Shown here one piece after another: positions 5,352 through 58,587 of a stretch of DNA of 64,000 nt. The stretch covers positions 512,001 through 576,000 of the forward strand of contig CBDANS010000006.1 of assembly GCA_965197745.1 (NCBI GenBank). Reading direction: 5' to 3'. The notes beneath the pieces were generated by a model, which was given only the letters and a program-made list of their open reading frames with translations, made no database searches and was not told the DNA's origin. Each line of letters starts with the position of its first letter. Within the stretch, counting starts at the first letter, position 1. The position numbers and the translations under genes were made by a program. The DNA comes from Opitutales bacterium. Its GTDB lineage: Bacteria > Verrucomicrobiota > Verrucomicrobiia > Opitutales > PNEW01.

Positions 5352-5550
5352 GGGTCAGACTGCGAATTCTTTGATTGATAAGAAACTATGGGAGAACTGG
5401 AATTGCGAGAGAATGGCTCGAAAGCCAAGGATTGAAAGTAACGATGGGCTCTATGTTAGTATCTTTCGGCGTGAGCAGAAGAACAGAAGTAAAGCCTACA
5501 GAACTTTGAATAAAATCAAAGAATTCGCAGTCTGACCCTTTACGTTTTCC
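5352..5550 (+). mobile_element. RAYT-derived MITE copy 1 (left tip at 3758-3780 split off by IS4)
   Basis: 25-bp TIR GGGTCAGACTGCGAATTCTTTGATT...AATCAAAGAATTCGCAGTCTGACCC; internal mini-ORF 5413-5535 MARKPRIESNDGLYVSIFRREQKNRSKAYRTLNKIKEFAV. Confidence 0.8.
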
Positions 5551-5705
5551 TTGGCGATATTTTGTTATCGCTATGATCGAATTTGGCATAACCCAATACA
5601 ATAAGTAGGCATAGAATAGAAACTGTGTAGATTAACTTCATTTGTCTTTAATGCTAAAATCTGAAGTGCGACATTACCGCAATTTTGCTAGGCAAGATGA
5701 GAGCA

Positions 5706-6482
5706 TCATTGCATTCCATCATATACAAAAGGTTGAGTATCCGTAATAGGGTTAAAGTCTCTCTTGCGTAGGATTGGTTCAGAAGTTGGTAACGCATCAA
5801 CAGATGCATATAATACTTTTCTTATTAATGCCTCCTTCAATCTTACTGCTACGATACTCGTGTACAAACCTAGATTTCTAAATTTCTCTCTAGTTTGCCC
5901 ACCATACAAGCCACAGAACTTACTATCTGAATGAAAATAAGCACGTCCACAGGATGCAGGTTCTTCATTCACGTAAGCGACATATATACTCATGTTACTA
6001 GGAGATTTTTCTATCATATATGTATAATGGTTAAATTGATCATCGAAACTTTCGTTATGCACTTCTTCAAATATTACTCTTACATCATTTATTCCTTTTC
6101 TATCATTGATTTTACGTATTTCACATGATGATTTTTTGAAATCGTTTAATGATTCAATGCTTAAGGATAACACCATAAATTTCTCTATTGATTGACCCTT
6201 AAATCCTGCAGACAAAAGTTTTTCTCTCAAACATGATGGAGAATCGTGGCCATATACTTTCCATTCAAGATTACACTTATTCTTTCGTGCATATGAAATC
6301 TGTCTTTTTATCGCTTCATCAATATCTTTTTCAGAATGGTTTGAATATATAATTTCACAGATTTTTCCGTCGTTATGAAAATCTTTTACCACATTCTCTT
6401 CAAATACTCTCTGTGAATCAGGATATTCAATACTTTGCCTTTCCTCATCCAATAATCTCAGAATTTCAATTTTGTTTATCAC
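5706..6482 (-). CDS. GNAT family N-acetyltransferase
   Basis: C-terminal GLYGGQTREKFRNLGLYT acetyl-CoA motif, VDALPTSEPIL; very AT-rich. Confidence 0.85.
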   Translation of the reverse strand: MINKIEILRLLDEERQSIEYPDSQRVFEENVVKDFHNDGKICEIIYSNHSEKDIDEAIKRQISYARKNKCNLEWKVYGHDSPSCLREKLLSAGFKGQSIEKFMVLSLSIESLNDFKKSSCEIRKINDRKGINDVRVIFEEVHNESFDDQFNHYTYMIEKSPSNMSIYVAYVNEEPASCGRAYFHSDSKFCGLYGGQTREKFRNLGLYTSIVAVRLKEALIRKVLYASVDALPTSEPILRKRDFNPITDTQPFVYDGMQ

Positions 6483-6581
6483 GATATTATCAATGGTTTC
6501 GCTCCATCCTTTATAAAATTATACCCAATATGCAAAATAGAAACAGCTAAATACAATCATGGAAGAAATAGGGTCAGAGTG

Positions 6582-8154
6582 GAATGGCGTTAAGATAAGG
6601 GATAGAATGAGTGCAATAGATGCTTGTACAGGGACCGTTGGAGAGCTACCCTAACGAGCATGCAAAAACAAAACTTAACTCGTTATTTTCCAGGATTTAA
6701 TCAGGTCCTGTTCGGTCGTGCTCCCCGAACAGCCCTTGCACAGATGGAGGGTAAGCTGGTAGAAATACGGCGGTCAAGTCTTTCCGAGCTATCGGATATC
6801 TTCGGGCAGTGGGTGCCGCAAAAGTATTTACACCGGAAGCCTCGAGGGGCTAACAGCCGGCGGAGATTGTTCAGCCAAAACGTGACCTTCTGGGCATTTT
6901 TGTTCCAAGTGCTCTCACCACGGACTGCCTGCCGGGAAGTGGTGCGCAAGCTCCAGAGCTATTGCAGCATGAAGGGGCTGAAGTTGGCCAAAGGAACGGC
7001 CTCGGTCTACTGTCAGGCGAGGCAACGGCTGTTGGTGCAAGACCTGCACGGGATCCATGAAGCGATCAGTGAAGAGGTGGCCGGGAGAGTGACCGACGAT
7101 CAACGGTGGAAAGGTCACGAGGTAAAAGTGGTCGACGGCACGGGTATCGCCACCGCCGATACGCCGTGCTTGCAGAGGTGTTACCCACAGCCTTCGCAGC
7201 AACGAAGCGGCTGCGGCTTTCCGGTGATGAAGCTGGTGGGCTGTTTTTCTTTAGCCAGTGGGGCGCTTTTACACTGGATGGAGTCCTCACTAAGGCATCA
7301 TGACAGTGTGCTGTTGCGGGGCATGATCGGATTTTTTCAAAAGGGTGATGTGGTCCTTGCCGACCGGGGATTTTGCTCTTACCTCAATATTGCCCTGCTT
7401 AAAGGCCGCGGTGCTGAAGCGGTCATGCGTTTGCATCAGCAACGAAGAAGCGACTTTCGTCAGGGCAGGTCCTTGGGTAGGTATGACCGGCTGATCATGT
7501 GGAAGAAGCCGCAAAATGTCTTCGGCTTCAGTCGCGAGCAGTGGCGGCAAATCCCTGATGAGATCCCCGTACGGCTGGTGAAGATTTTCATTTTCATCAA
7601 AGGTTTCCGCGCCCATAGCGTAGACCTCGTGACTACCTTGAGCGATCCTCACCAATACTCCCACCACGATCTCGGAGAATTATACTATCGGCGCTGGGCA
7701 GTGGAGCTTTACTTTCGCCACATCAAAACCACCATGGGGATGGAGATCCTGCGCTCTCGCTCGGTCGCTCTCGTGCGCAAAGAGATTGCGATGTTTGCCA
7801 TCGCCTACAATCTCTCATCCGCGCTCTTTTGCAGCAAGCTGCCAGTGCCTTCCACCGCGACCTCTCCCGGCTAAGCTTCAAGGGGGCTGTTGACACCCTC
7901 CGCCAATATCAAAGTGCGCTCGCGGCCACCCGGTTTAATCCCAGAGCCCAACGATCTGTCATTGACGAGATGATACACCTCATTGCCCTCGAATCGGTCC
8001 CCCTACGTCCCTTCCGATACGAACCAAGAGTCCTCAAACGTAGACCTATACCTTTCCAACGATTGACTCATCCACGAGCCATGATGACCGTCTCTGCTTC
8101 ACGAAAAAACAAAGGCTTTTATCATCCTAAACCACCCTTATCTTAACGCCATTC
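6582..8154 (+). mobile_element. IS4-family insertion sequence, copy 2 (1573 bp, inverted relative to copy 1)
   Basis: Same TIRs, near-identical to 3781-5351; flanks GGGTCAGAGTG/GGGTCTGACTG. Confidence 0.93.
6624..8146 (+). pseudogene. IS4 transposase, frameshifted
   Basis: 2-nt duplication AATCTCTCATC near 7811 versus AATCTCATC in copy 1 splits the ORF into 6624-7874 and 7829-8146. Confidence 0.88.
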
Positions 8155-10392: not shown

Positions 10393-11144
10393 CTAAGTGC
10401 TTTCAGCTAATTCATTTCGTCGCTGTAGAGCTGATTGTTTATCCAGTAATGGCCTTTCTCGACCCATAAGGTGTATCAACCATAACTTTGAACGTTCCAT
10501 CACATGCATCACAGCCCACACGATAGGTAAAAGTGAAGTCGGAGCGGAGATATAACCATATTCACTCATAAGCGGACCTAAAGTACGTTCAACCGACCAA
10601 GCTTCACGAAGAGATAAATTGTTTCGATAAATACCAATGCGTGAAGTTGTCAGTGGCTGTTGAGTTAAACTTTTCCACTCATGTTCAACTCTTAGATAGC
10701 CAGGTTCTGTCCTATTTGTGAATTCCAACATCGTGGGTTCGTAAATCTCATCGAGAAATTCGCAAATACGCTTCAATTCTTCTTCAGGGTGTTTTAACAA
10801 TTTCTCATATTGGACAGTGTGTAAGCGTTGACTTCCTAGCTCTTCCGAAAGATCTGAAAGTTTTTGCAGTGCTTGCTGGCAAAATTCTGCGGCCCTTATA
10901 GCCGATTTAGCGGTCCACCAATATTGACTGCGTAACGAAGCTACCACATCGCGAGGATCTCGATAAATATGAATGAATTTTGCATCAGGAAATAGTTCTA
11001 AAATGCGGTGAGCACATGTACCATAATAAGGTGTATTGTCACCAAACCTTATATTATCACCGCTTTTTGGAGATATCTGTTGTAGTATGTGAAGATAGAT
11101 GTCTCGTGTGGATCGTAATCCGGATCGCACCGCAGTATCAAATC
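10393..11144 (-). pseudogene. Sulfotransferase family protein, 5'-truncated by IS3
   Basis: FPDAKFIHIYRDPRDVVAS (3'-PB motif), QYEKLL; frame runs into the IS3 IRL at 11145 and the 5'-PSB loop is absent. Confidence 0.85.
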
Positions 11145-12494
11145 TGGAGTGACCCCCAAAAATGGTATCATTAACAGAGAGAGGTTATCGGGATAAACAG
11201 ATAACCTCATGAAAAGAAAAAGATACACAACAGAACAGATCATCGCAATACTGCGGCAAGCCGATACCGGAAAAACGGTAGAGGAAATCTGCCGAGGCAA
11301 CAACGTGAGTGAACAGACCTTCTATCGCTGGGGTAAAAAGTATGGCAATTTGGAACTAGCCGATGCGAAGCGATTTAAAGAGCTGGAAAAAGAAAACACC
11401 GAGTTGAAGAAGATGCTCGCTGATCAAATGCTTAAGAATCAGGTAATGGAGGAAACGCTGTCAAAAAAGTGGTGAGCCCCAAGCAGAAGAAGCGAGTAGT
11501 AAAAGATGCGGCTGAGAGAGGGCTGTGCTCGTTGCGAAGGGCTTGTTCCTACCTCAGCCTCAGTTGGTCAACTTTCAGCTACCAGCCCAAGCAGGCCAGT
11601 AAGAAAGCTCAGCGGTTGGCCGAGCGGATTATAACCCTGTCCTGGGAACATCCCTGCTACGGTTACCGGCGCATCCGTGCCTTGCTCGTAAAGGAAGGCT
11701 GGACAACAAACAGGAAGTTTGTTCAGGCGGTACGACGTTCAGAAGGGTTGCAGGTAAAGCCACCTAAAAAGCGTAGACACCGTCAAGGGGTCTCTACGGG
11801 GTCGCCTACTAAAGCAACCGGTCGCAATCACCTTTGGTCCTGGGACTTTGTCCATGATCGCACAGACCATGGCGGTCCATTAAAGATGATGACTCTGATC
11901 GATGTACCGAGGAGCTGAAAGCGACGACACTCAAGCGAAGCGAAGCCATATACGCGTGAATGTCTGGATATCCGGGTAGCTCGTCAACTCCCCTCATCGG
12001 ATGTCCTCTCTGTGCTTAGCGAGGCCATTGAAAAGGAGGGAGCTCCCAGCTATATCCGTAGTGACAACGGCAGTGTTCCGAGGAGCGAAGCGACGACATG
12101 CGAAGCCATTCATTGCTCATCAAGTGCAGCAGTCGTTGTCCGACAAAAAGATCAAGGCGATATATATCGATCCGGGCAGTCCCTGGCAAAACGGTTTCAT
12201 CGAGTCGTTTCACAACCGCTTACGCGATGAGTGTTTGAACCGTGAAGTGTTGCTCAGCGTGGCTGAAGCACAAGTTGTAATCGAACAATGGCGCCAGACC
12301 TATAACCATGATCATCCCCACAGTCGATTAGGCTTTAAAAGCCCACAAGAGTTTGTCACATTCCTTTCAGATCCTGGCCGCGTTCGGGCTACGCCCTCAC
12401 TTCGCCAAGATCTCTCATATACATCAATCCTAAAACCATTAATACCCGGGAACTCTCTCACTTAATAATTGGTACGAAAAACGGGGTCCAATCA
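11145..12494 (+). mobile_element. IS3-family element lineage A, copy 1 (orfA 11209-11475; orfB interrupted by two micro-insertions)
   Basis: TG...CA ends TGGAGTGACCCCCAAAAA / ACGGGGTCCAATCA; A6G slippery site at orfA/orfB; WSWDF, SDNG, PGSPWQNGFIESFH motifs. Confidence 0.93.
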
Positions 12495-13901: not shown

Positions 13902-13992
13902 GGGGTCAGGCTCGGCATGTGAACTGTCGTCCCGCAGTTTCGGGACTCGGTACTGGCATTTTACTATTTTACCGGAATGCAGGGCCTGACCC
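13902..13992. repeat. REP-like inverted doublet GGGGTCAGGC...GCCTGACCC
   Basis: Ends share GGGTCAG with the MITE TIR; internal GTCCCG/CGGGAC hairpin. Confidence 0.65.
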
Positions 13993-18986: not shown

Positions 18987-19910
18987 CTATCCAATGTTTT
19001 CATGTAAGAATTTTAGAACACGGTTCCAGGCATCAATACCAGCTTTAGATACATCCTTTGGGATACCTCCGAACTGGACTGACTCCTTACTAACAGGATG
19101 AATAACTTCCAGAACTGTTGTTGGAAAGAGTCCTACCGGAATGCTATGTCCAACGTTTTCGTAAGCTATATGTTTAAAGTAAAAAGGATGATCGTGTTCA
19201 TTTAACCGGAATATGGATACGTCTGAAAAAAACCTGGAAGACCAGATTCGGTCATCTTTCCCCGAGAAAAGTAGTATTGGTCCATTGATATTTTCCACGG
19301 GAATTATAGAAGCGCCCAAATCAGGATGTTCTTTCATAAAGGACGTATAGCCAGGCACACCACCGTCATTCCCGCTTATAACTAGTCCATCTTTGTATTT
19401 TTCTTGTAGTTCTTGTGAGTAATAAGGAATCGCTTCCCCTTTATATGTCCAAGCAGGTCTTACTTCTGGCGAGGATCCAAAGCCTCCAAATGTGATGCCA
19501 CTTGGAACATAACTAACAACTGCTTTAATGCTTGGATATCGGCTTCCCAGAATAAGCGCCAGTTCACCACCTCGGGATTTACCCACTACGCCGATTCTTT
19601 CACCATCAACAGGTTTCTGTTTTTTTAGCCAATCAATAGCATTTTCGAAATACTCCAAAGGAATATCATAGAGCTCATCTGGCAGGTTTTTTTCTTTAAA
19701 ATACGCTAGTGACAGAGCGGCAATTCCACGAGATGCTATGAGTTCAGATGGGAAATCATTATGCCCACCACCGGACCTTTCTAGAAATATTATAGCACCA
19801 AACGGGCCTTGCCCTTCAGGAATAAAGAGTGTCCCAACGAGACCGCTTTCTTTTACCGGTATTCTTGTAACTTCCGGACTTATTCTCAATCGTGAGATAG
19901 TTTTCGAAAT
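18987..19910 (-). pseudogene. Acyl-CoA thioesterase/BAAT-like alpha/beta hydrolase, 5'-truncated by IS3
   Basis: GLVGTLFIP, IPLEYFENAIDWL, GKSRGGELAL nucleophile motif; the ORF-track N-terminus is IS-derived. Confidence 0.85.
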
Positions 19911-21261
19911 TGGAGTGACCCCCAAAAATGGTATCATTAACAGAGAGAGGTTATCGGGATAAACAGATAACCTCAATGAAAAGAAAAAGATATACAACAG
20001 AACAGATCATAGCAATACTGCGGCAGCCCGATACGGGCAAAACCGTGCAGGAAGTCTGCCACGGCAACAACCTAAGTGAACAGACCTTCTATCGCTGGGG
20101 CAAAAAGTATGGCAACTTGGAGCTGGCTGATGCGAAGCGATTTAAAGAGCTGGAAAAGGAGAATACGGAGCTGAAGAAGATGCTCGCTGATCAAATGCTC
20201 AAGCTTCGGGTGTTGGAGGAAACGCTCTCAAAAAAATGGTGAGCCCAAAGCAGAAGAAGCGAGCAGTAAAAGATGCGGCTGAGAAGGGGCTGTGCTCGTT
20301 TTAGAGGGCTTGTGCTTATCTCAGCCTCAGTTGGTCAACGTACAGCTACCGACCCAAGCAGGCCAGTAAGAAGGCTCAGCAATTGGCCGAGCGGATTTTG
20401 ACCTTGTCCTGGGAACATCCCCGTTACGGTTACCGGCGCATTCGTGCCTTGCTGGTGAAAGAAGGTTGGGCGGCAAGCAGGAAATTTGTACAGGCAGTGC
20501 GACGTTCTTCGGGCTTACAGGTAAAGCCCCCGAAAAAGCGTAGACACCGTCAGGGGATCTCTACTGGGCTCCCTACTAAAGCAACCGGTCGCAATCACGT
20601 CTGGTCCTGGGACTTTGTCCATGATCGTACAGACAATGGCGGTATGCTAAAGATGATGACCTTGATCGATGTACCGAGGAGCTGAAAGCGACGACACTCA
20701 AGCGAAGCGAAGACATATACGCGTAAATGTTTACGCATCCGGGTAGCTCGACAGCTCACCTCAACCGATGTTCTCTCGGTACTCAGCGAAACCATCGATG
20801 AAGAGGGAGTTCCTAGCTATATCCGCAGTGACAACGGCAGTGTTCCGAGGAGCGAAGCGACGACATGCGAAGCCATTCATTGCTCATCAGGTGCAGCAGT
20901 GGTTGTCCGACAAAAAGATCAAGGCGATATATATCGATCCGGGCAGTCCCTGGCAAAACGGTTTCATCGAGTCGTTTCACAACCGCTTACGCGATGAGTG
21001 TTTGAACCGTGAAGTGTTGCTCAGCGTGGCTGAAGCACAAGTTGTAATAGAACAATGGCGTCAGACCTATAACAATGAACATCCCCACAGTCGATTAGGC
21101 TTTAAAAGCCCACAAGAGTTTGTCACATTCCTTTCCGCTCTTGGCCGCGTTCGGGCTACGCCCTCACTGCGCCAAGATCTCTCATATACATCAATCCTAA
21201 AACCATTAACACCCGGTAGTTCTCTCACTTAAAATTTGATACGAAATACGGGGTCCGATCA
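19911..21261 (+). mobile_element. IS3 lineage A, copy 2 (orfB with early TAG and two micro-insertions)
   Basis: Same TIRs and ORFs as 11145-12494. Confidence 0.93.
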
Positions 21262-26778: not shown

Positions 26779-27084
26779 TTTTAATTAGTCTTTAATGATT
26801 AAAATATAACAAAACTCTTTTAAAATAAACATAACTGTCAATTATAAAAAAATATATTAAAATAGACAACAGTCCCGCTACTAACCCTTACCTGTACACC
26901 CCATCAAGAGAGAGGGCGTATGCGCTTCTGCGCATTGCAACAGCAAGACGCTCGCAGGCGGCAACGAACATACAGGAGGGTCGAGGTTGCTTTATTCTGG
27001 GATTTACAACTTTCAGCTATTTCTTTGTAGATTACATCTGGTTTCCACGAAGTTTTGATTAGTGGAAATGCTGTGACCGTCAGT

Positions 27085-28143
27085 GCGGTTAAAGCGGATG
27101 CTGGCGGACAAGCTGCTGGGGATAGAGATTCTGCAGGAGACCCTCGAAAAAAAACGGTAAGCCCTGGGCACAAGCGGCAAGTGGCAGAGAGACTTGTGGC
27201 CCGGGGCCAGTGTTCGATGCGTGGAGCGTGCCGATACTTTCACCTGCACCGCTCCACCTATGCGTATCGGGCGAAGTATCCGGATGCCTGGCTAACGAAA
27301 CTGAAGGCGGCAGTAAGGCGGTTATCACGGCAATACGCGAGGTGGGGCTATCCGAAGATCACGAAGCTGTTGAAAGACGAAGGCTGGGAGGTGGGTAAAC
27401 GTCTCGTGCAACGTCTACGACGCGAACTGGCCCTGGCGATCCCCCCACGCAAGCCAAGACGTCGGCGCAGGGGTGTTTCCACCGGGCTGCCGACCAAGGC
27501 CGAACATCCCGACCCTGTTTGGACCTGGGATTTTATCCACGACAAAACGGTCCGCGGTGGCAGTTTAAAAATGTTGACCATGCTCGATGAGTACACCCGC
27601 GAGTATCGAGTGATCCATGTTGATCGCCATATCAATGCGGAAACGGTGCGCGGTATCATGCAAAAACTGCTCGACCCTCATGGGCCGCCACAATATATTC
27701 GCAGCGACAACGGTTCCGTTCCGAGGAGCGAAGCGACGACATGCAAAGCCATTCATTGAAAAGGAATTGAGAGCCTGGCTAACTGCGATGAAAATCAAAA
27801 CCCTCTATATCGAACCAGGAAGCCCTTGGCAGAACGGATACATCGAATCGTTGCATGCCCGTTTTCGCGAGGAGTGTTTAAACCGTGAACAGCTATGGAC
27901 TTTGACCGAAGCCCGCGTGGTGATCGAGGACTGGCGCTGGCTTTACAATAATGTCCGACCCCACCGCAGCCTCGGCAATATCACCCCACGGTGCTTCGCT
28001 GAAGACATTAATACCGAAGGCTTGGGCTCCATTCGGGCTACGCCCTCATTGCGCCCAAGCCTTGACTTCCTCTACCAACTTAACTTCAACATTAACCTCT
28101 CCAGACTAACTCTCTCGGTGGACCAGTTTACGTAACCCGATCA
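27085..28143 (+). mobile_element. IS3 lineage B, 5'-truncated copy
   Basis: Near-identical to the corresponding part of 57271-58587; IRR GTGGACCAGTTTACGTAACCCGATCA. Confidence 0.9.
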
Positions 28144-28173
28144 GGTATAATCGTGTAATTTTATAATTAATAC

Positions 28174-36033: not shown

Positions 36034-37305
36034 TGACCTGCACCCGATTACTGTACCAGAGCCAGTGTTAGTTCCGGCAGGGTGGTATGGGTTTTAATTT
36101 TCTTAGACATGGCTCTCTGGGCGTATTCGGCCGGAGGCCGATAGCCCAGAGAACTGTGTGGTCTTTGAGTATTATAATCAAGCCGCCAGGCTTCAAGTTT
36201 TTCTTTCGCTTCAGCGAGCGTACAAAATAGCTCGGTGTTAAGAAGTTCATCTCGTAAGCGTCCATTGAAGCTCTCAATATAACCATTCTCTACGGGTTTG
36301 CCTGGCCGGATAAAATCCAGCTTGATGCCATGGCCATAAGCCCATTCATCCAGTACTTTGCCGGCAAACTCGGGACCATTATCGACGGTAATGGTTTGGG
36401 GAAGACCGATTCCTTCAGCGGCTTTCGTCAGTGCTGCAGCGACTTTGCGCCCACCGATGGATGTATCGGCTAGAAGCAGTGGGCAAGCTCGGGTGTATTG
36501 ATCGACAACGGTGAGTATGCGGAAGGGGCGGCCGTTGGTCAGCCGATCGCTCATAAAGTCCATCGACCAGCGCTTCTGGGCAGCTGAAGCCGCAGGTAGT
36601 GAGACCCGCCTTTGCGCGGCACGCTTCTTTCGTTTCTTCGTGCGCACTTCCAGCCCTTCGGCCTTGTAGATACGATAAACGCGTTTCTTTCCTACCGTCC
36701 AGCCTTCCCGCTTTAATAACACCGTGATTCGCCGATACCCGTAGCGCACGCGCGCGGCGGCGAGGTCACGGATGCGCACGATCAGCGCACGTTCGTCCTT
36801 CTTCACAGGTTGGTAGTTATAACTCGACCAACACAACTGCATCAGCCTGCACGCCCGGCGTTTGCTCACCTCATAAGCTTCCACTAACCACTCAGCAATC
36901 ACCTTCTTGCGCACAGGCTTTACAACTTTTTTGAGATAACTTCCTGCAGCATATGCTTGTCCAGGCTTAGATCAGCCACCAGCTTCTTCAAACTAGTGTT
37001 CTCTTCGTCGAGTTGCTTCAGTCGTCTTAATTCGCTGATTCCCATGCCCGCGTATTTACCCTTCCAACCGTGGTAGGTCTGTTCGCTCACGCCTAACTCT
37101 CGACACACTTCGGCGATCCTTCGACCGCCTTCTACCTGCCTTAGGGCATAGATGATTTGTTCTTTATTATATCGTTTGTCAGGCCTTCTCGGCTGCGCCT
37201 CGTGAACCTTTGCTTTTCATGGATGGTTCTTTCTCTTATTTTTATTAGGTTTTCCACCCACGCCAGACTAAATCTTTCCTGGTCCAGTTTTACGGGGACA
37301 GGTCA
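36034..37305 (-). mobile_element. IS3 lineage C (IS407-like), full length with 3-bp AAG duplication; orfA interrupted
   Basis: TIRs TGACCTGCACCCG / CGGGGACAGGTCA; orfA 37220-36920; A6G slippery site. Confidence 0.93.
36048..36914 (-). CDS. IS3 transposase OrfB, intact DDE domain
   Basis: [27 protein letters not shown]. Confidence 0.92.
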
Positions 37306-40055: not shown

Positions 40056-40735
40056 AGGGCTTCAGAATATCGACGAAGAAAACAGAATCAGCAGCATTGC
40101 AAGAGACTCTCGTTGCCGTTTTAGGCAATGATGTTCCAGGCGTTCAAAAACTGCTCGCTGATTATCTTCTGAAAATTGAAGCCCTGCAGATAGTCTTGGG
40201 AAAAACCATCTAAGCGCGGAGCGATAGCGTGGCGTTGTTGAATTAGCTCAGCAGGCATTGTCGTGTTCGTAGTGGGCTCTATACCGCTGGCGGAGATTCA
40301 GCAGCTTGACCCTGCCCACCGCTTCAAACCTGTAACCGATAAGAAGCCGTTGCTGGTGACTGCAATCGTTTGCCTGTCACGGAAACACTTAACCATTGGC
40401 TACAAAAATTCAATCAAATGCTGGGTGAAATAGTCTCCTAGGTAAACAAGAAACAGGACTGCACATACGCCGCTAAGAGGGACTGCCAGTATCGCTGTAA
40501 AAACTTCGAAAGCAACTACAGCGACCTGTCCACGGGTATGCCTCAAGAGGCCAAACACAGGAATCACGTGTAGGCGTGGGATTTCGTTTAGGACTACACC
40601 CAAAGTGGCGGCAAACTGCGTGTTTTCAGCATCATCGATGTACCGAGGAGCCGCAGGCGATGACACTCGAGCGAAGCGAAGACATAACCACGTGAATGCC
40701 ATATGCTTCATGCACACAGCGCGATCAAGGCAGCC
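40056..40735 (+). mobile_element. Highly degenerate IS3 (fourth lineage, D)
   Basis: EEENRI.., LLAD..LKIEALQ, NHV.AWDFV.D.T..GGKL.VFSIID remnants. Confidence 0.7.
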
Positions 40736-42070
40736 TGGTCGGGTTAAGCAAACTGGTCCACCGGGAGAGTTAGTCTGGAGAGGTTAATGTCGAAGTTAAG
40801 TGGGTAGAGGAAGACAAGGTTTGAGCGCGTAGACCGAATGGAGACCGAGCCTTCTGTATTGAGGTCTTCAGCAAAGCGCCGTGGGGTGATATTGCCGAGG
40901 CTGCTGATGGGGGGCGGACATGATGGTAAAGTCAGCACCAGTGCTCGATCACAACGCGTGCTTCGGTTAAAGTCCATAACTGTTCACGGTTTAAACACTC
41001 CTCGCGAAAACGGGCATGGAAAGATTCGATGTATCCGTTCTGCCAAGGACTTTCTGGTTCGATATAGAGGGTTCTTATTTTCATCGCAGCCAGCCAGGCT
41101 CGCAATTCCTTTTCAATGAATCGCTTCGCATGTCATCGCTTCGCTCCTCGGAACGCAACCGTTGTCGCTGCGAATATATTGTGGCGGTCCATGCCTCTCG
41201 ATCATTTTTTGCATGATACCGCGAACGGTTTCCGCGTTGATATGGCGATCGACATGGATGACCGGACATTCGCGGGTCTACTCGTCGAGGATGGTCAGCA
41301 TTTTGAGACTCCCACCGCGGACCGTTTTATCGTGGATAAAATCCCAGGTCCAAACATGGCCGGGATGTTCGGCTTTTGTCTGCAGGCCGGTGCAGACACC
41401 CCTGCGTCGGCGTCTTGGCTTGCGTTGGGGGATCGCCAAGCCCAGTTCACGTCGCAGACCTTGCACGAGACGTTTACCCACATGCCAGCCTTCGTCCTTC
41501 AACAGCTTCGTGATCTTGGGATAGCCCCACCTGGCGTATTGCCGTGATAACCGCCTTACTGCCGCCTTCAGTTTCGTTAGCCAGGCATCCGGATGCTTGG
41601 CCTTATACGCATAGGTGGAACGGTGCAGGTGAAAGTATCGGCACGCTGCACGCATCGAACACTGGCCCCGAGCCACAAGTCTCTCTGCCACTTGCCGCTT
41701 GTGCCCAGGGCTTACTACCGAGCGTAAGCGACATCTACCATTTTTTTTCGAGGGTCTCCTGCAGGATCTCTATCCCCAGCATCTTATCTGCCAGCATTCT
41801 TTTTAGCCGCACGTTCTCCTTCAAAGAGCTCTTTCATCCGCTTGGCCTGGTTGACATCAATCATTCCAAACTCACGCTTCCAGCGGGGGAAGGTCTGTTC
41901 GCTGACGTTGTTCTCCCGGCACACTTCCTGGATCGATTTACCCCTGTCTGCTTGCCGCAATATCCGTATCTTCTCTTCGGTGGTGTATTTTTTTGCCTTT
42001 CATTGTCTGAGTCCTTTCTAGGTTACCCAGACTAACTTTTCAAGTGTACCAGTTTTCGTGGTCACGACCA
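40736..42070 (-). mobile_element. IS3 lineage B, full length but degenerate
   Basis: Both TIRs present; many indels versus 57271-58587. Confidence 0.9.
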
Positions 42071-42339
42071 CCAGTGATGAAAATATACTCCAATGATATC
42101 CAGCTACAGATAATGATTTCATGGTAAATCACATTGATTATAATTACTAAGCTTCGAACTAAGCCGATAGACTTAATCAGAAGTAAGTAGTAATTTGTTG
42201 GTATTTTAAAAAATAGTCAAAATGATTGGACTGCTATGAGTCACAAGTCCCACCAGAACTTACCATCGTTTCGAGTTATTAGCACATATCGGTGTTGGCC
42301 ATTGAATGGTATACCACCCCGTCGGATCTAAAACTGACT

Positions 42340-48542: not shown

Positions 48543-50660
48543 TCAGTAGTTTGACCGGCTACGATCAAAAAAGAATTGTTCGGGTCGGGCAATGCCGGGG
48601 GTTTGCAAGGTTGCGCTGTTGGGTGCAACATCGGGAACATTTCGAAAATTATTTTTAACCACGACAACGCCGTTCAAAGCAGGTGTCTGTCCGACGGTGC
48701 CAATAACATACAGGTTGTTTGAATGGATTCTCCACAATTCTTTTCCCAGTTCCGTACGCATCGCTTTGGGTAGACTATTACCTTCCTCAAATATCTCCAG
48801 CAAATGTTTAAGATCGCCGGAAGGCGCCACGCCCTTTTGACCGTCAGTTAAATACCATAAGCCGATGAGCGGGGCGAAAGCACCGCGAAGGATAGGTATG
48901 GTCATATTGGGGTAAGTCCACGGGTTTTCAGAACCGCCACTATACCCCATGTTAAGTTGGTGTTCGTTGTTTCCTCGCCGTCTACCATAGTAACCTCCCC
49001 CTTCAACGCTTAAATGTAATTTTAGGCCGACATCATTCCAATGATTCACGAGAAGTTCAGCTATACTTTGAAAATCTACTAACGCCTGAGTCGGTATTGA
49101 GAGGGTAATCGTCAGACGTTCGTTATTGTCAGTGCGCAGGCGGTATCCTTCACTGTCCTTTTTATCTAAACCGATAGCGTCGAGGATCGCGTTGGATTGT
49201 TCCAGGTTGCGAACCGCATGCTTTTTCTCATATTCAGGACCGGGATAATACGGGTTGTTCGGGAAGGGGAGGAAGGCTCTTGGCTTGCCCATTCCAAGAA
49301 AAATCGATTCGTGTATCTCCTCTCGATCAATGGCAAGAGAGAGGGCTATCCGAAAATCGCGGCTTCTAAGCCACTTTTCTATTTCGGTATCTCCACGCCA
49401 GGTTTGGTTAACATAGATGATGCCGTCGGAACCTCCTAAATTTGGCCAGAAGAGTACGCGGTAGTCACCCTTGTCTGCTTCCCGCTTGAGCACCGGGACT
49501 TTGTCTAAACGGATATGACGATGTTGCATATCCACCTCCCCGGCCATGACGCGTGCATTGAACACCTCGGTGTCCTCAAAGAAGCGCATAACAATCTTGT
49601 CGATATAGGGAAGCTGATTCCCTTCGGGATCGACGGCAAAGTAATAGGGGTTGCGCTCCAAAGAATAATTTTCACTGGTTATCGGAGTGACCATCTTCCA
49701 TGGCCCGACCACCGGTATTTCACGGTTCCTGTGGGGTGAGGCCATGCGTTTGAAGAGTTGCACCCAACTTCTGTCCCCCGTTGCTTTTATTTTATTTTGC
49801 AGTTCACTTAAGGGGGTGTACTTCGGGAGAAACTGCATTAAGTAATGCCAGGGAGCGTAGAGAGGACTTTCCCATCGGCGAACGAACTGGCCACCAACGT
49901 TTAAACCAGCAACATTCTCGATGAACACATAGTTGGGTTTATGAAAGGTATAACGAACTGTGGTCTCATCTAACTTTTCCACTTTGAATAGTTGCCCATT
50001 CGCTTTTGTGTAGCTGAATTTTACCGGGTTGATATTATCATTCAATGTTACATCTTCGAAGGCGAAAACAAAGTCATCAGCCGTGAAAGGCGCTCCATCA
50101 GACCACTTCATTCCCTGGCGCAGATGGAAAGTGAATGTTGTCCCGTCTTCGCTGATATCCCATGATTTTGCGATGTGAGCCATCAGGGCATAGCCATCGA
50201 GGTCAAAGTAAATTAAGTGATCATGTATAATCCGATCCATGTTGTTAGTATCAAGCCCCGTAAAACCGCGGCGCCAGGTGCCGCCGTATTGACCGATGCG
50301 TTCGATAGGCGGAATAATCAATGGCTCTTCCGGCAGGCGGTCTTCTACCGGAGGCAATTCCCCCGCGGCAACGCGCTTCGCCAGTTCAGGAGCTTCACTG
50401 AATGTCGTGGGTGTCGGACCCTTATAAATAAAACTGAATCCCTCAGTACTGACATATTCAGGCTGAGTTACTTCAGGTTCGTGTGAAAGTGAAGGTGGAG
50501 CATCCCTGGAACAACCGAACGGATTACTTATTATAAGAATTAAGAAAAAAACAAGTGACCCCCAATCGATTGCCGATTGCGGATTTGGAAGATGTCGGGC
50601 TTCGCCCTCGGTACTGATTGCGGATTGATCAGAATGCACGATACAGGATCCATGATGCAC
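48543..50660 (-). CDS. ABC transporter peptide-type (family 5) substrate-binding lipoprotein, orphan; true start uncertain
   Basis: FGC lipobox-like, EAPELAKRVAAGELPPVEDRLP, FHLRQGMKWSDGAPFTADD, ERNPYYFAVD. Confidence 0.88.
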   Translation of the reverse strand: MHHGSCIVHSDQSAISTEGEARHLPNPQSAIDWGSLVFFLILIISNPFGCSRDAPPSLSHEPEVTQPEYVSTEGFSFIYKGPTPTTFSEAPELAKRVAAGELPPVEDRLPEEPLIIPPIERIGQYGGTWRRGFTGLDTNNMDRIIHDHLIYFDLDGYALMAHIAKSWDISEDGTTFTFHLRQGMKWSDGAPFTADDFVFAFEDVTLNDNINPVKFSYTKANGQLFKVEKLDETTVRYTFHKPNYVFIENVAGLNVGGQFVRRWESPLYAPWHYLMQFLPKYTPLSELQNKIKATGDRSWVQLFKRMASPHRNREIPVVGPWKMVTPITSENYSLERNPYYFAVDPEGNQLPYIDKIVMRFFEDTEVFNARVMAGEVDMQHRHIRLDKVPVLKREADKGDYRVLFWPNLGGSDGIIYVNQTWRGDTEIEKWLRSRDFRIALSLAIDREEIHESIFLGMGKPRAFLPFPNNPYYPGPEYEKKHAVRNLEQSNAILDAIGLDKKDSEGYRLRTDNNERLTITLSIPTQALVDFQSIAELLVNHWNDVGLKLHLSVEGGGYYGRRRGNNEHQLNMGYSGGSENPWTYPNMTIPILRGAFAPLIGLWYLTDGQKGVAPSGDLKHLLEIFEEGNSLPKAMRTELGKELWRIHSNNLYVIGTVGQTPALNGVVVVKNNFRNVPDVAPNSATLQTPGIARPEQFFFDRSRSNY

Positions 50661-52476: not shown

Positions 52477-52959
52477 ACTCCCACTGGCGGCGGTTCCACC
52501 ACGGTCCCCGCAGCCGTCCCCCATAATACAGGACCTGACTTCTGCCCTGCGCGTCCAGGCGCTGGCGTTGGATCATTAAACTCTGCCGTTGTCGACTTAC
52601 ACTGCGTTGGCGCTCCTCGGCTTCGCTCGGGACATAGACTACACTGAATGCATCCTTGTTGCCGTTGAGATAACGGTCCAAAGACAGGGCCATTTTACGG
52701 GCATCGCGTTGGTCGGTTTTGACTTTCTTGCCATACTCGTCCCAGTCGCGGGGACGGATCACGTAGTTTTGCACTCCCAGCTCCTTTAAGCGCCTATGCA
52801 AGCCGTATCCAAACGGTCCGGCTTCATAGTAGCTGACTACGCGGTGGGCTTCCTTCACTTGTTCTTCTACCCATTTTAGAAACGAAGGGGGACTGAACCG
52901 GCGGGGCGCTTTTGGCGTAGCTGCGTCCACCATCATGACCACCACATAGCGGTCGATAT
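52477..52959 (-). pseudogene. IS110-family transposase fragment (DEDD domain)
   Basis: YEAGPFGYGLHR, KVKTDQRDA; 5' end cut by IS3, Tnp20 domain absent. Confidence 0.85.
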
Positions 52960-54309
52960 TGATGTGACCCCCAAAAACCGTATCATTTACAGAGAGAGAT
53001 TATCGGAATAAACAGATAACCTCAATGAAAAGAAAAAGATAACCAACAGAACAGATCATATCAATACTGCAGCAAGCCGATACCGGCAAAACGGTAGAGG
53101 AACTCTGCCGTGGTAACAACCTAAGCGAACAAACCTTCTATCGCTGGGGTAAAAAGTATGGCAACTTGGAGCTGGCCGATGCGAAGCAATTTAAAGAGCT
53201 GGAAAAAGAAAACACCGAACTGAAGAAGCTGTTGCTGATCAAATGATCAAGAACCAAGTCTTGGAGGAAACGTTCTCATAAAAAGGGTAAGCCCAAAGCA
53301 GAAGAAGCGAGCAGTAAAAGATGCGGCTGAGAGAGGGCTGTGCTCGTTTTAGAGGGCATGTTCCTATCTCAGCCTCAGTTGGTCAACGTTCAGCTATCGG
53401 CCCAAGCAGACTAGCAAGAAAGCCCAATGATTGGCCGAGCGGATTGTAACTTTGTCCTGGGAACATCCGCGCTACGGTTATCGGCGCATCCGTGCCTTAC
53501 TGGTAAAGGAGGGCTGGACAACAAGCAGGAAGTTTGTCCAGGCAGTACGAGGTGCAGAGGGCTTACAGGTAAAGCGAACGAAAAAGCGCAGCCCCCGTCA
53601 AGGGGTCTCAACAGGGCTCCCCACTAAAGCAAAAGAACGCAATCACGTTTGGTCCTGGGACTTTGTCCATGATCGCACAGACAATGGCGGTCCATTAAAG
53701 ATGATGACCTTAATCTATGAATACACACGTATATGTTTAAGCCACCGGGTAGATAGACAGCTCACCTCAACCGATGTCCTCTCTGTGCTTAGCGAGGCCA
53801 TCGAAGAGGAGGGAGCTCCTAGCTATATGCGTAGTGACAACGGCAGTGTTCCTAGGAGCGAAGCGACGACATGCCAAGCCATTCATTGCTCATCAAGTGC
53901 AGCAGTGGTTGTCAGACAAAAACATCAAGGCGATCTATATCGATCCAGCCAGTCACTGGCTACCGAGCGAAGCGACACCTCAACGAGCCATAGCGAGAAT
54001 AACAAACGGTTTCATCGAGTCGTTTCACAACCGCTTACGCGATGAGTGTTTGAACCGTGAAGTGTTGCTCAGCGTAGCTGAAGCGCAAGTGGTAATCGAA
54101 CAATGGCGTCATAATTACAATAATGAACATCCCCACAGTCGTTTAGGCTTCAAAAGCCCACAAGAGTTTGTCAGATTCCTTTCCGATCTTGGCCGCGTTC
54201 GGGCTACGCCCTCACTTCGCCAAGATCTCTGCTATACACCAATCCTAAAACCATTAACACCCGGTAACTCTCTCACTTAAAAATTGGTACGAATAACGGG
54301 GTCCGATCA
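52960..54309 (+). mobile_element. IS3 lineage A, copy 3 (degenerate; two micro-insertions)
   Basis: TGATGTGACCCCCAAAAA...ACGGGGTCCGATCA; stops in orfA and orfB. Confidence 0.92.
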
Positions 54310-55997: not shown

Positions 55998-57270
55998 GTT
56001 GCTAGGCTAGAGTCGCCCTTATTCAAATCCGATTATCACACTGCTGAAAAATACGTTTTGATGGTTTCCCATTTCTAAAAATCTTTTTTTGAGTTTGCGC
56101 TTAATCTGTTTGGAGAAATAAGCCAAATCGCCTATTCGCCCCTGATAGCTGCACTCATTGATGCCTGGGCATCCCTGGGCTGAGACTTTAGGGTAGACAC
56201 TGAACTGTTGATGGAGAAAAGAGGGAACACCTCGAATTTGATCCTGCTACCCTGCAAGCCGCTTGGATGGTTTCTGGACAAACTGTCGATTGGCAACTGC
56301 ATTTTACAGTTCCTCATGACAGAATTTTATTTCGAGGGGTAGCTGTTTCGGCGCTATTTTCAGAACCTTCCTGGATCTGAGAGATGGTCAAGGAGGGGTG
56401 GTTTTTTTTGCGCCAGATTGCTGCCGCCAATATTGTCATTTTTTATGTCTGTCGTATCTCTTTGTACAACGGTGAACTGTAGACACACTTAAAAAAGGAG
56501 AGGGAGGATCGACACGATCCTCTCTTATCGATCAGCCCATCAATTAAGGGGTTGTTTTAGGTTGTCTACAATGAAGGCCAACCTGTGGACACATAAAAAA
56601 AGAGCGCCTGGTAGTTTGAAGGTTGCCTGAGCAGACCGTTATTGGCGACAGTGTGCACGGACCAAAAGAGGACGGACCTAAGAGAGACCTTGGAGGGCGA
56701 CCCGCACAATCATTATTATGTCCAGTTGATTTGTAAATTATTGATATTCAACATATTAATTTTATACATAAAATTCCTAACGGTCTTATAACGCCGCTAA
56801 TTAAGGAGTAAGCCCCAGTATAACACTCTGATTAAGCCGGGTTGATATACTCGTTGCATACTCACCACGACCCGTGATTTAGGGTTGTCACCTTCTTAGG
56901 ACGAGAGCATGTCTTGAGCAGTCTCCTTGCCCCGCCATCGCTTTAACCGTGCCCTTAGAAGTAGATCATGTTTCAAGGGGGCGGGGGGGTGCGCGATCAG
57001 AAGATATACCGCCAGTCATACTATCGATTTACTCACCGGAAAATATATTTACAAAGGACAAGGTTTGGCAGCAAAAATAATTTTAAAAGAACCACGCTTA
57101 AATTGGCTCTAAAATGTACGATCACTCTTCGTTAGGAACCCAATTTACTGTCTTAAGATGCAAACACCCTTTCTCGAGGCTCTCAGAGCCCTTCACGGGC
57201 AAATCAAATCATTGGTGGTGCTTCAAAAAATTCACCCCGCAAAGAGTAAACCAGCCAGCACTATGACAGG

Positions 57271-58587
57271 TGGTCGTGACCACGAAAACTGGTCCACTTG
57301 AAAAGTTAGTCTGGTCCAACTAGAAAGGACACAGACAATGAAAGGCAAAAGATACACGACCGAAGAGAAAATACGGATGCTGCGCCAGGCGGACAAAGGG
57401 AAAACGATCCTGGAAGCATGCCGCGAGAACAACATAAGCGAACAGACCTTCCACCGCTGGAAACGTGAGTTTGGGATGATTGATGTCAACCAGGCCAAGC
57501 GGATGAAGGAGCTCGAGAAGGAGAACGCGCGGTTAAAACGGATGCTGGCGGACAAGATGCTGGGGATAGAGATCCTGCAGGAGACCCTCGAAAAAAAACT
57601 GTAAGCCCTGGGCACAAGCGGCAAGTGGCAGAGAGACTTGTGACTCGGGGCCAGTGTTCGATGCGAGCGGGGTGCCGGTACTTTCGGCTGCACCGTTCCA
57701 CCTATGCGTATAGGGCCAAGCATCCGGATGCCTGGCTAACGAAACTAAAAGCGGCAGTAAGGCGGTTATCACGGCAATACGCGAGGTGGGGCTATCCCAA
57801 GATCACGAAGCTGTTGAAGGACGAAGGCTGGCAGGTGGGTAAACGTCTCGTGCAAGGTCTGCGACGTGAACTGGGTCTGGCGATCCCCCCACGCAAGCCA
57901 AGACGCCGGCGCAGGGGTGTCTGCACCGGGCTACCGACAAAGGCCGAACATCCCGACCATGTTTGGACCTGGGATTTTATCCACGATAAGACGGTTCGCG
58001 GCGGCAGTCTAAAAATGCTGACCGTGCTCGATGAGTACACCCGCGAGTGCCGGGTGATCCATGTTGATCGCCATATCAATGCGGAAACGGTGCGCGGTAT
58101 CATGCAAAAACTGCTCGACCGGCATGGGCCGCCAAAATATATTCGTAGCGACAACGGTTCCGTTCCGAGGAGCGAAGCGACGACATGCAAAGCCATTCAT
58201 TGAAAGCCAATTGAGAGCCTGGCTAACTGCGATGAAAATCAAAACCCTCTATATCGAACCAGCAAGCCCTTGGCAGAACGGATACATTGAATCGTTCCAT
58301 GCCCGTTTTCGCGAGGAGTGTTTAAACCGTGAACAGTTATGGACTTTGACCGAAGCCCGCGTGGTCATCGAAGATTGGCGCTGGCTTTACAATCATGTCC
58401 GACCCCACCGCAGCCTCGGCAACATCACTCCACGGCACTTCACTGAAAACCTCAATACCGAAGGCTCGGGCTCCATTCGGGCTACGCCCTCATTGCGCCC
58501 AAGCCTTGACTTCCTCTACCAACTTAACTTCAACATTAACCTCTCCAGACTAACTCTCCCTGTGGACCAGTTTGTGTAACCCGACCA
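57271..58587 (+). mobile_element. IS3 lineage B, full length (orfA 57338-57604; orfB broken only by a 32-nt insertion)
   Basis: TGGTCGTGACCACGAAAACTGGTCCAC / GTGGACCAGTTTGTGTAACCCGACCA; A8 slippery run; DDE motifs. Confidence 0.94.

Follow-up and report, generated by a model that had tools for sequence, protein, structure and literature searches.

What is a 44-nt, hairpin-forming insert doing inside a transposase gene, and why has its stem stayed paired while its letters changed? These questions are raised by positions 40641–40684 (plus strand) of a 64,000-nt stretch of an Opitutales bacterium genome (GenBank assembly GCA_965197745.1, contig CBDANS010000006.1, positions 512,001–576,000; hereafter the window), where the insert lies directly 3′ of ...CGATG in a decayed fragment of an insertion sequence (IS) of the IS3 family. 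We find that this insert belongs to a family, here called E, of DNA repeats that are very small, carry no gene and consist of a tagged hairpin. As sampled, the family is confined to Opitutales, and its members probably move, or once moved, as DNA.

Hairpin inserts in IS3 transposase genes

The window contains six IS3-family copies of two lineages, A and D, together with decayed fragments (Table 1). Their identity is given by Pfam matches to HTH_Tnp_1 (5.3e-20), HTH_21 plus rve (8.8e-17) and rve_3 (1.6e-26): orfA encodes a transposase HTH and orfB a DDE (rve) core, as in the IS3 family. An A7 run at the orfA/orfB overlap, with orfB in the −1 frame, matches the layout of the IS3 programmed −1 frameshift site (A6–7 G) and is a putative site of this kind. 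The decayed fragment that holds the insert (40562–40698; repeat family D6) aligns to lineage A positions 20593–20729 with 71% identity. Two hairpins are present in the insert, GA-GCC-GCA-GGC-GA (40648–40660, core GCC-GCA-GGC at 40650–40658) and GA-GC-GAA-GC-GA (40669–40679, core GC-GAA-GC at 40671–40677). In the lineage A inserts at the homologous site, termed site 1, the first hairpin reads GA-GCT-GAA-AGC-GA. Five of the 44 bases distinguish the two versions; two of these differences make up a paired change from T:A to C:G, which keeps the 3-bp stem (GCT/AGC to GCC/GGC), and one alters the loop from GAA to GCA. An earlier first-pass annotation, made from the letters alone, had given both sequences correctly and had placed the start of the insert at the right base, but it ended the insert one base early, at 40683, and assigned the GCC-GCA-GGC copy to lineage D, whereas this copy sits in the decayed fragment and not in a full lineage D copy. 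Within the window, the site-1 insert is present in lineage A copies 1 and 2 and absent from copy 3 and from lineage D. Two other hairpins reported in the same annotation were likewise located: the site-2 form, CCGAG-GA-GC-GAA-GC-GA-CGA, occurs six times in the window, and CGA-GGC-GCA-GCC-GAG, there called site 5, lies in a third IS3 lineage and is our sixth site.

Across the whole genome (4.45 Mb in 7 contigs, 45% G+C), 78 near-full IS3 copies were aligned. Five insert sites were found, every one of them with filled and empty alleles. At all five, the empty allele reads N-AR-N and the filled allele N-T[A/T/C]CCGAG...CA-N (hyphens mark the junctions); two target bases are therefore replaced at IS3 sites, with zero target duplication. 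At the sixth site (net +28), which follows codon 5 of orfA, the head reads TTCACGAG (or AAAACGAG) and the bases replaced are AA or CA. The inserts lie in sense orientation at five of the six sites. In lineage D, a G/A variant within the site-2 insert co-varies with a variant in the flank, and the insert has therefore been inherited through IS3 copying rather than acquired anew each time.

At least one insert is carried by 74 of the 78 copies. The inserts at sites 1 and 2, both in the same copies, stop or shift the transposase frame, and the insert-bearing copies have lost their reading frame yet kept multiplying. The four insert-free copies all belong to lineage D and have long open frames, of 100 (orfA) and 354 residues in two copies and a single frame of 415 residues in the other two; the latter looks as if orfA and orfB were fused and frameshifting were not needed. 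Broken copies outnumber intact ones. The first-pass idea that the inserts serve IS3 is at odds with the stopped or shifted transposase frame, and E is also widespread outside IS3.

Site 2 was also inspected in contigs from three libraries of RNA and from one run that is probably DNA, all compared with a lineage D copy; these are other samples, and DNA carry-over is possible. One contig of library X15 (depth 22) has AG in place of the 33 nt, in a second (depth 3.1) AGTTT takes the place of 36 nt, and a loose contig end in X16 shows the same empty junction; filled site 2 is found in X15 (contig depth 4.9) and in X1 as well. The AG junction is that of the empty DNA allele, and no processing of RNA could produce it from a filled copy; the contigs give no sign of splicing. 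These contigs show that empty copies exist in those samples and nothing more; parts of the IS3 copy are uncovered in X16 and X17, which proves nothing. At site 2 (58162–58199), the depth in the RNA libraries is higher for the empty form (22) than for the filled form (about 5), the reverse of the filled-to-empty ratio of 70 to 8 in the genome assembly; here again the samples differ and DNA carry-over is possible.

A dispersed family of tagged hairpins

E consists of a 5′ tag, T[A/T]CCGA, a hairpin closed by G...C, the bases GAC and a tail ending in CCA. The minimal form, of 24–29 nt, can be written T[A/T]CC-GA-G[stem-loop-stem]C-GA-CATCTTCCA; two-hairpin forms measure 30–60 nt, and the family as a whole spans about 23–60 bases. 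A census based on the tag T[N]CCGAG, 3–24 free bases and the tail CGACATCTTCCA, with at most 2 mismatches, returned 111 short-form copies in this genome, only 8 of which lie in IS3 loci and 103 elsewhere. The tag reads TACCGAG in 97 of the 111 copies and T[T/C/G]CCGAG in the remaining ones. A further E-like copy at 13925–13950 of the window (minus strand), with a long stem (TCCCG...CGGGA) and a tetraloop, falls outside the strict tail pattern.

Outside IS3, one context of E is a larger, TGTC-tagged (Ssn-type) hairpin repeat of this genome; E lies in the 3′ arm of the stem and disrupts the outer stem on entry. E is carried by 45 of 206 regular-expression matches to the head of this repeat, many of the unfilled ones being chance matches within genes; empty copies read GC-AA-TCC. 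It also lies within short tandem repeats such as CCCTGAA and beside other small repeats, and hexamer or heptamer tandem contexts were seen in this genome and in 4 others. The upstream flanks vary (GATG, AGTG, TCCG, TGGC, TTAC, GCGGC, ATCG, CTCAC), and no conserved upstream tetranucleotide was found across the flanks compared. An Rfam search gave one tRNA in the window and nothing near the 40641 insert at E-values up to 1, and a short copy searched by BLAST against plasmids returned chance-level matches only (E-value about 7).

The 111 short copies contain 70 distinct inner segments, in which 163 end-anchored nested pairs were counted where shuffles gave 35.7; in 38 of the 70, pairing is complete up to a loop of 3–4 nt. 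When this genome was pooled with 39 loci from 7 other genomes, the hairpin fitted 72 of 81 distinct segments, a count that left out segments longer than 17 nt (3 of this genome's 70), and 40 distinct stems were represented. Among 217 stem positions in this pooled set, from which 9 segments with more than one non-pair were left out, 177 were Watson–Crick, 16 G.T, 12 A.C and 12 other. Among long forms of other genomes, all 8 distinct second hairpins have stems that are unrelated to one another yet complementary. It is clearly the hairpin that is under selection, rather than its sequence, and the first-pass observation that pairing is kept while the letters vary extends to the larger set. The flanking GA/GA bases, which had also been described as kept, indeed never vary and are hence uninformative on pairing.

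The loops follow a rule that depends on the stem. GNA loops occur in 24 of 54 distinct forms with a short stem (2–4 bp) and in 0 of 17 forms with a 7-bp stem, the loops of which are assorted tetraloops; the GNA loop noted in the first pass is therefore a preference and not a rule. Of the distinct two-pair forms, 17 of 24 have two G:C pairs (GC/GC or CC/GG) that close a GNA, GNNA or GAAB loop, as in the DNA mini-hairpin class, whose stability as DNA is extraordinary; the purine-rich loops are confined to one strand. In the passages of the Hirao laboratory review (PMC13037366) used here, only GNA among the 64 GCNNNGC triloops makes a mini-hairpin (melting temperature 70–76 °C), and GC/GC stems with GNNA or GAAB tetraloops have melting temperatures of 67–72 °C. 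The loop of E is constrained only where the stem could not hold by itself, a pattern that suits an element required to fold as single-stranded DNA (ssDNA). This rule, read from sequence, is the best argument for a DNA fold over an RNA fold and would be consistent with folding of E as ssDNA.

The short form was detected in 36 of 401 Opitutales genomes (24 of 133 genera), with 1 match for the reversed-pattern control, and the long-form head in 21 of the 401, with none for its control; the middle base of the long-form loop takes all four values. Among 304 genomes drawn from the phylum's other orders and classes, none contained the full short form. In the other Opitutales genomes, E lies at the ends or in the interior of hexamer or heptamer arrays, in the loops of hairpin repeats and at contig ends, the last of which suggests multi-copy hosts. 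At one locus (L142), empty copies of the host hairpin stand beside a filled one. Short E copies at the end of or inside hexamer or heptamer arrays were seen in other genera at loci L156–L163 (genome G385), L179–L190 (G194 and G087) and L170–L171 (G012). At three further loci (L118 1290–1620, L125 1420–1720 and L123 1290–1620), a long-form E lies about 100 nt downstream of a tRNA gene and adjoins a duplicate of the tRNA 3′ end, which in L118 and L125 extends over the terminator of that tRNA; 48–63 nt are duplicated, and the L123 duplicate is degenerate. The long-form E sits in the loop of a hairpin made by an inverted duplicate of the T-arm strand, and the word CTCAC recurs beside it. This arrangement looks like an attachment-site-type or snap-back rearrangement. 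A cobalamin riboswitch or other RNA was considered for these copies and rejected, since Rfam gave tRNAs only.

Table 1. Positions of inserts, host elements and candidate genes. Positions without a prefix are those of the window; C4, C6 and C7 are contigs. Hyphens mark junctions or hairpin parts.
Feature	Position	Strand	Remarks
Site-1 insert under study	40641–40684	+	two hairpins; decayed IS3 fragment
Site-1 insert, lineage A copy 1	11905–11948	+	44 nt, net +42; GCT-GAA-AGC; TGA stop into orfB frame
Site-1 insert, lineage A copy 2	20672–20715	+	
Site-2 insert, lineage A copy 1	12076–12108	+	33 nt replacing AG, net +31; just 3′ of SDNGS, rve core; +1 shift
Site-2 insert, lineage A copy 2	20843–20875	+	
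Site-2 insert, lineage A copy 3	53849–53881	+	two substitutions
Site-2 insert, lineage D, 5′-truncated copy	27719–27751	+	
Site-2 insert, lineage D	58163–58195	+	cuts Pfam rve at profile position 77 of 102; rve_3 then in +1 frame
Site-2 insert, lineage D, minus-strand copy	41121–41153	−	
Site-3 insert	53961–54004	+	44 nt, net +42; PWQNG region of orfB; in frame, without stop
Site-4 insert, typical short E	41716–41740	+	25 nt, net +23; GC-GTAA-GC hairpin; antisense to IS3 gene, adjoins A7 slippery run
Sixth-site insert, third IS3 lineage	37177–37206	−	30 nt; after orfA codon 5; hairpin GGC-GCA-GCC; empty allele GG-[AA or CA]-AACG
Free-standing short E	50586–50613	−	tag, GGGC-GAA-GCCC hairpin, CATCTTCCA tail; in short tandem repeats, not in IS3
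IS3 lineage A copies	11138–12494, 19904–21261, 52953–54309		
IS3 lineage D copies	27083–28145 (5′-truncated), 57263–58587, 40734–42078 (−)		
Host element, full-length IS3-family copy, lineage D	57263–58587	+	orfA, A7 frameshift site (putative), orfB (rve)
Site 1 in the 78-copy alignment			net +42; 31/78 copies; in-frame TGA added
Site 2 in the 78-copy alignment			net +31; 70/78 copies; just after SDNGS of catalytic core; +1 frame shift
Site 3 in the 78-copy alignment			net +42; 12/78 copies; PWQNG region
Site 4 in the 78-copy alignment			net +23; 6/78 copies; antisense, beside A7 slippery run
Site 5 in the 78-copy alignment			net +35; 9/78 copies
Insert-free IS3 copies, outside the window	C4:136857–138145, C7:406740–408025, C7:1352651–1353939, C7:1901264–1902552		
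ssn-like GIY-YIG genes	C7:1541878–1542340, C7:1545540–1546003, C7:483520–483960, C6:787800–788350		each between inverted TGTC-tagged nested hairpin repeats
Split Y1_Tnp (IS200-like) gene	C6:163,000 region, locus L155 881–1863		

Elsewhere in the window (4119–7814), a 1,242-nt inverted repeat pair with 99% complementarity and a flanking 351-nt pair may mark another mobile element or a composite structure.

Mobility, function and candidate enzymes

If E is a mobile DNA family, it would act as ssDNA folded on the purine-loop strand, and a strand-specific enzyme would recognise it by its tag plus hairpin; a Ssn-like GIY-YIG nuclease or an HUH enzyme would be candidates. The broken IS3 copies would presumably be mobilised in trans by the four insert-free ones. 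Several observations weigh against this reading. No movement was seen directly, mobility being deduced from filled and empty sites among paralogous repeats, and no enzyme is tied to E. The junction in filled Ssn-type repeats has one extra T relative to the replacement of AR seen in IS3, and the bases lost in tandem repeats are not always AR. Replication-strand bias is absent, with 19 plus and 22 minus copies on one arm and 15 and 16 on another. Nearest-neighbour DNA folding gave z-scores of −0.84 to +2.27, no better than shuffles, and RNA-parameter folding of the inserts did no better; nearest-neighbour parameters miss mini-hairpin stability, with z-scores not below those of shuffles. G.T and A.C are about equal among the stem positions, so wobble gives no strand signal. 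The first-pass proposal that the inserts are selected to fold as ssDNA thus stands in part: the hairpin is selected and the short-stem loops match DNA rules, but DNA over RNA is not established by wobble or folding. Finally, lineages A and D, which are about 66% identical overall, carry a nearly identical insert at site 2, which needs either a strong site preference or selection on the insert.

The candidate enzymes were searched for directly. The single Y1_Tnp match of this genome is split into two frames (198 and 171 residues) and lacks any E-type repeat within 450 nt, the 450 bases downstream containing just two bare CCGAG pentamers; this too counts against an enzyme-driven family. Y1_Tnp relatives in other Opitutales are about 300–350 residues long and reach 46 copies; 7–46 such genes were found in 4 of 5 other E-bearing genomes searched and a single weak one in the fifth, a distribution that is uninformative. 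A link of E to REP-associated tyrosine transposases (RAYT; REP, repetitive extragenic palindromic) was not found, as the sole Y1_Tnp gene is split and lacks an adjacent E-type repeat, and the first-pass suggestion of HUH or RAYT substrates is not supported, a conserved upstream tetranucleotide and a replication-strand bias being absent as well. The links of E to Ssn and to RAYT are weak.

E might be a sub-type of an Ssn-nuclease repeat system (SRM/NTS, CGTC-tagged REPs); the small GIY-YIG nucleases of this genome would then bind and cut it as ssDNA, and its spread would be a by-product. We think this rather unlikely. In the parts of PMC11893778 (Chenal et al. 2025) drawn on here, Ssn are small GIY-YIG proteins that cut ssDNA only, a few bases upstream of a tagged hairpin, and ssn genes are flanked by their repeats. 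Four ssn-like genes of about 97–130 residues, two of them broken by stops, are flanked by the TGTC-tagged repeat of this genome, and E lies in the upstream repeat of three of the four. That repeat has an inner module, GCGAG-GA-[hairpin]-GA-CG, that closely resembles E, and one strand of the larger repeat combines the tag TGTC with a CCA tail and a stem that begins with AT. In E, the CCA tail, which matches that of CGTC-type REPs (PMC3733652; Di Nocera et al. 2013), is present, and TGTC occurs only on the strand opposite the purine loops. Against both this reading and a Ssn enzyme for a mobile E, the Ssn-type protein of this genome, present in 21 of 401 Opitutales genomes, occurs in only 5 of the 12 genomes with at least 3 short-form copies, and 14 genomes have the protein with zero short forms. 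The other 7 of the 12 gave no match to it at an E-value of 1e-8, although a Pfam GIY-YIG search of 5 of these 7 found short frames (108–130 residues) in two (G187 and G087) and a partial 77-residue match in G385. Moreover, E breaks the outer stem of the repeat that it enters, and a nuclease alone does not explain insertion. The inserts could instead be cis-acting, single-stranded initiation signals of the primosome-assembly type that let insert-bearing IS3 copies out-multiply intact ones in copy-out replication, a view that we regard as quite improbable. It would account for the excess of insert-bearing IS3 copies (74 to 4) and for the expansion of sub-lineages after they gained an insert, and the parts of PMC13037366 seen (section 4.1) describe mini-hairpins at phage G4-type priming sites as poor binders of single-stranded DNA-binding protein. 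The first-pass annotation had placed a 14-mer with a GCA loop in ColE1; the ColE1 record (NC_001371.1, 1329–1342) has it with one change, GTA, at the middle base of the loop. E copies with a GTA loop match the ColE1 word exactly over 14 nt, and three of them, with the tail variant starting CGAG, over 15 nt. The stretch 1329–1343 lies between the origin region and rop, and the next ColE1 word loosely resembles the inner module of the larger repeat. This stretch is taken to be part of the ColE1 primosome assembly (PriA) site. Priming is at odds with the location of 103 of the 111 short copies outside IS3, with the antisense orientation at one IS3 site and with the destruction of the transposase frame.

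An RNA-level role for the inserts, whether in recoding (bypass or a +1 frameshift), in the splicing of a tiny element or in regulation by a structured RNA, any of which would leave IS3 functional, seems to us very improbable. The sense orientation at five of six sites and the near-invariance of the site-2 insert between diverged lineages would fit it. So would the abundance of broken copies, as IS3-type transposases prefer to act in cis. However, an in-frame TGA at site 1 and a +1 shift at site 2 occur in the same copies, inspection by eye revealed neither a slippery motif nor take-off and landing codons that match, and E lies on both strands in tandem and hairpin repeats. No Rfam match was obtained, RNA folding is no better than shuffles, and the RNA-library contigs that bridge site 2 show AG, the empty DNA allele, or AGTTT, with no precise-deletion form listed among them.

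The reading of E as a DNA-level mobile family, which we favour, can be taken further, to a proposal that we hold to be unlikely: E would be among the smallest self-propagating bacterial DNA insertions, a 24–25-nt unit that moves as a single-stranded mini-hairpin, replaces two bases by means of an unrecognised enzyme, and either has disabled some 95% of the host IS3 copies, as a parasite of a parasite and a de facto brake on transposition, or gives broken copies a priming-type site with which to out-replicate intact ones in copy-out. Hairpin repeats of small size, among them REP, SRM/NTS, SDR and the mitochondrial GC clusters, are common. Here the targets are themselves repeats (IS3 and Ssn-type), so that one genome offers dozens of exact comparisons of filled and empty sites, which reveal where the element ends, that two target bases are lost and that no target is duplicated, and thereby constrain the mechanism. 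E also provides a natural test of the DNA mini-hairpin rules, as its loop is constrained only if the stem is too short alone, and it is a clear example in which one family of selfish elements has been invaded and inactivated by a second, which bears on the control of IS load in symbiont genomes.

Relation to known hairpin repeats

The literature searched, which did not take in the figures and supplements of PMC3733652 with the Opitutus terrae consensus, contained no published account of this repeat family in Opitutales. In PMC3733652, GTAG- and CGTC-tagged REPs have CCA tails, no dedicated transposase is given for the CGTC class, and intragenic REP insertions occur, many of them in O. terrae (Verrucomicrobia), which has the highest number of GTAG-type cases. 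Ssn-related motifs (NTS/SRM) and CGTC-tagged REPs are like E in having a tag on a short hairpin and an unpaired tail that ends in CCA, and in their hundreds of dispersed copies, often in inverted pairs. By contrast, the tag of E is T[A/T]CCGA, not CGTC or GTAG on the loop strand, its stems go down to two pairs, it enters the stem arm of an SRM and IS3 genes, and it co-occurs only weakly with the Ssn protein. REP/REPIN–RAYT systems and IS200/IS605 miniatures resemble E in a tag plus hairpin read as ssDNA, in the lack of target duplication and in inverted doublets. Unlike REP/REPIN–RAYT, E has no GTAG tag and no RAYT flanked by the repeat; unlike IS200/IS605, it has no fixed upstream tetra- or pentanucleotide and no lagging-strand bias.

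The small dispersed repeats (SDR) that Elhai and co-workers (2008, Genome Res 18:1484) reportedly described in Nostoc and relatives are said to be 21–27 nt long, to form a hairpin with compensatory changes and to occur in tandem heptamers and small mobile elements; they were reportedly proposed as the smallest mobile elements, moving through RNA. They are like E in size (24–29 nt for E), in a covarying hairpin and in the tandem hexamer or heptamer context, but they belong to a different phylum and apparently have a different sequence, whereas E follows DNA mini-hairpin loop rules and has colonised transposase genes. Fungal mitochondrial GC clusters, according to the portions of PMC4478555 (Wu and Hao 2015) used, are gene-less hairpin modules of about 40 nt that are gained and lost, merge into two-hairpin forms, can sit inside genes and target AG dinucleotides. 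In the same portions they are flanked by duplicated AG or ACT, whereas E loses AR instead (five IS3 sites of the 78-copy alignment); they are mitochondrial, whereas E is bacterial and shows no evidence of translational bypass. The DNA mini-hairpins d(GCGNAGC) and d(GCGNNAGC) share with E their core words and the loops that they permit (PMC13037366); at ssDNA priming sites, as described there, they are single functional sites in replicons, whereas E is a dispersed insertion family. E is thus closest to tagged hairpin repeats of the REP/SRM/SDR type, and is set apart from them by its own tag, its two-pair stems, its two-base target loss and its colonisation of IS3 transposase genes and of another repeat's stem.

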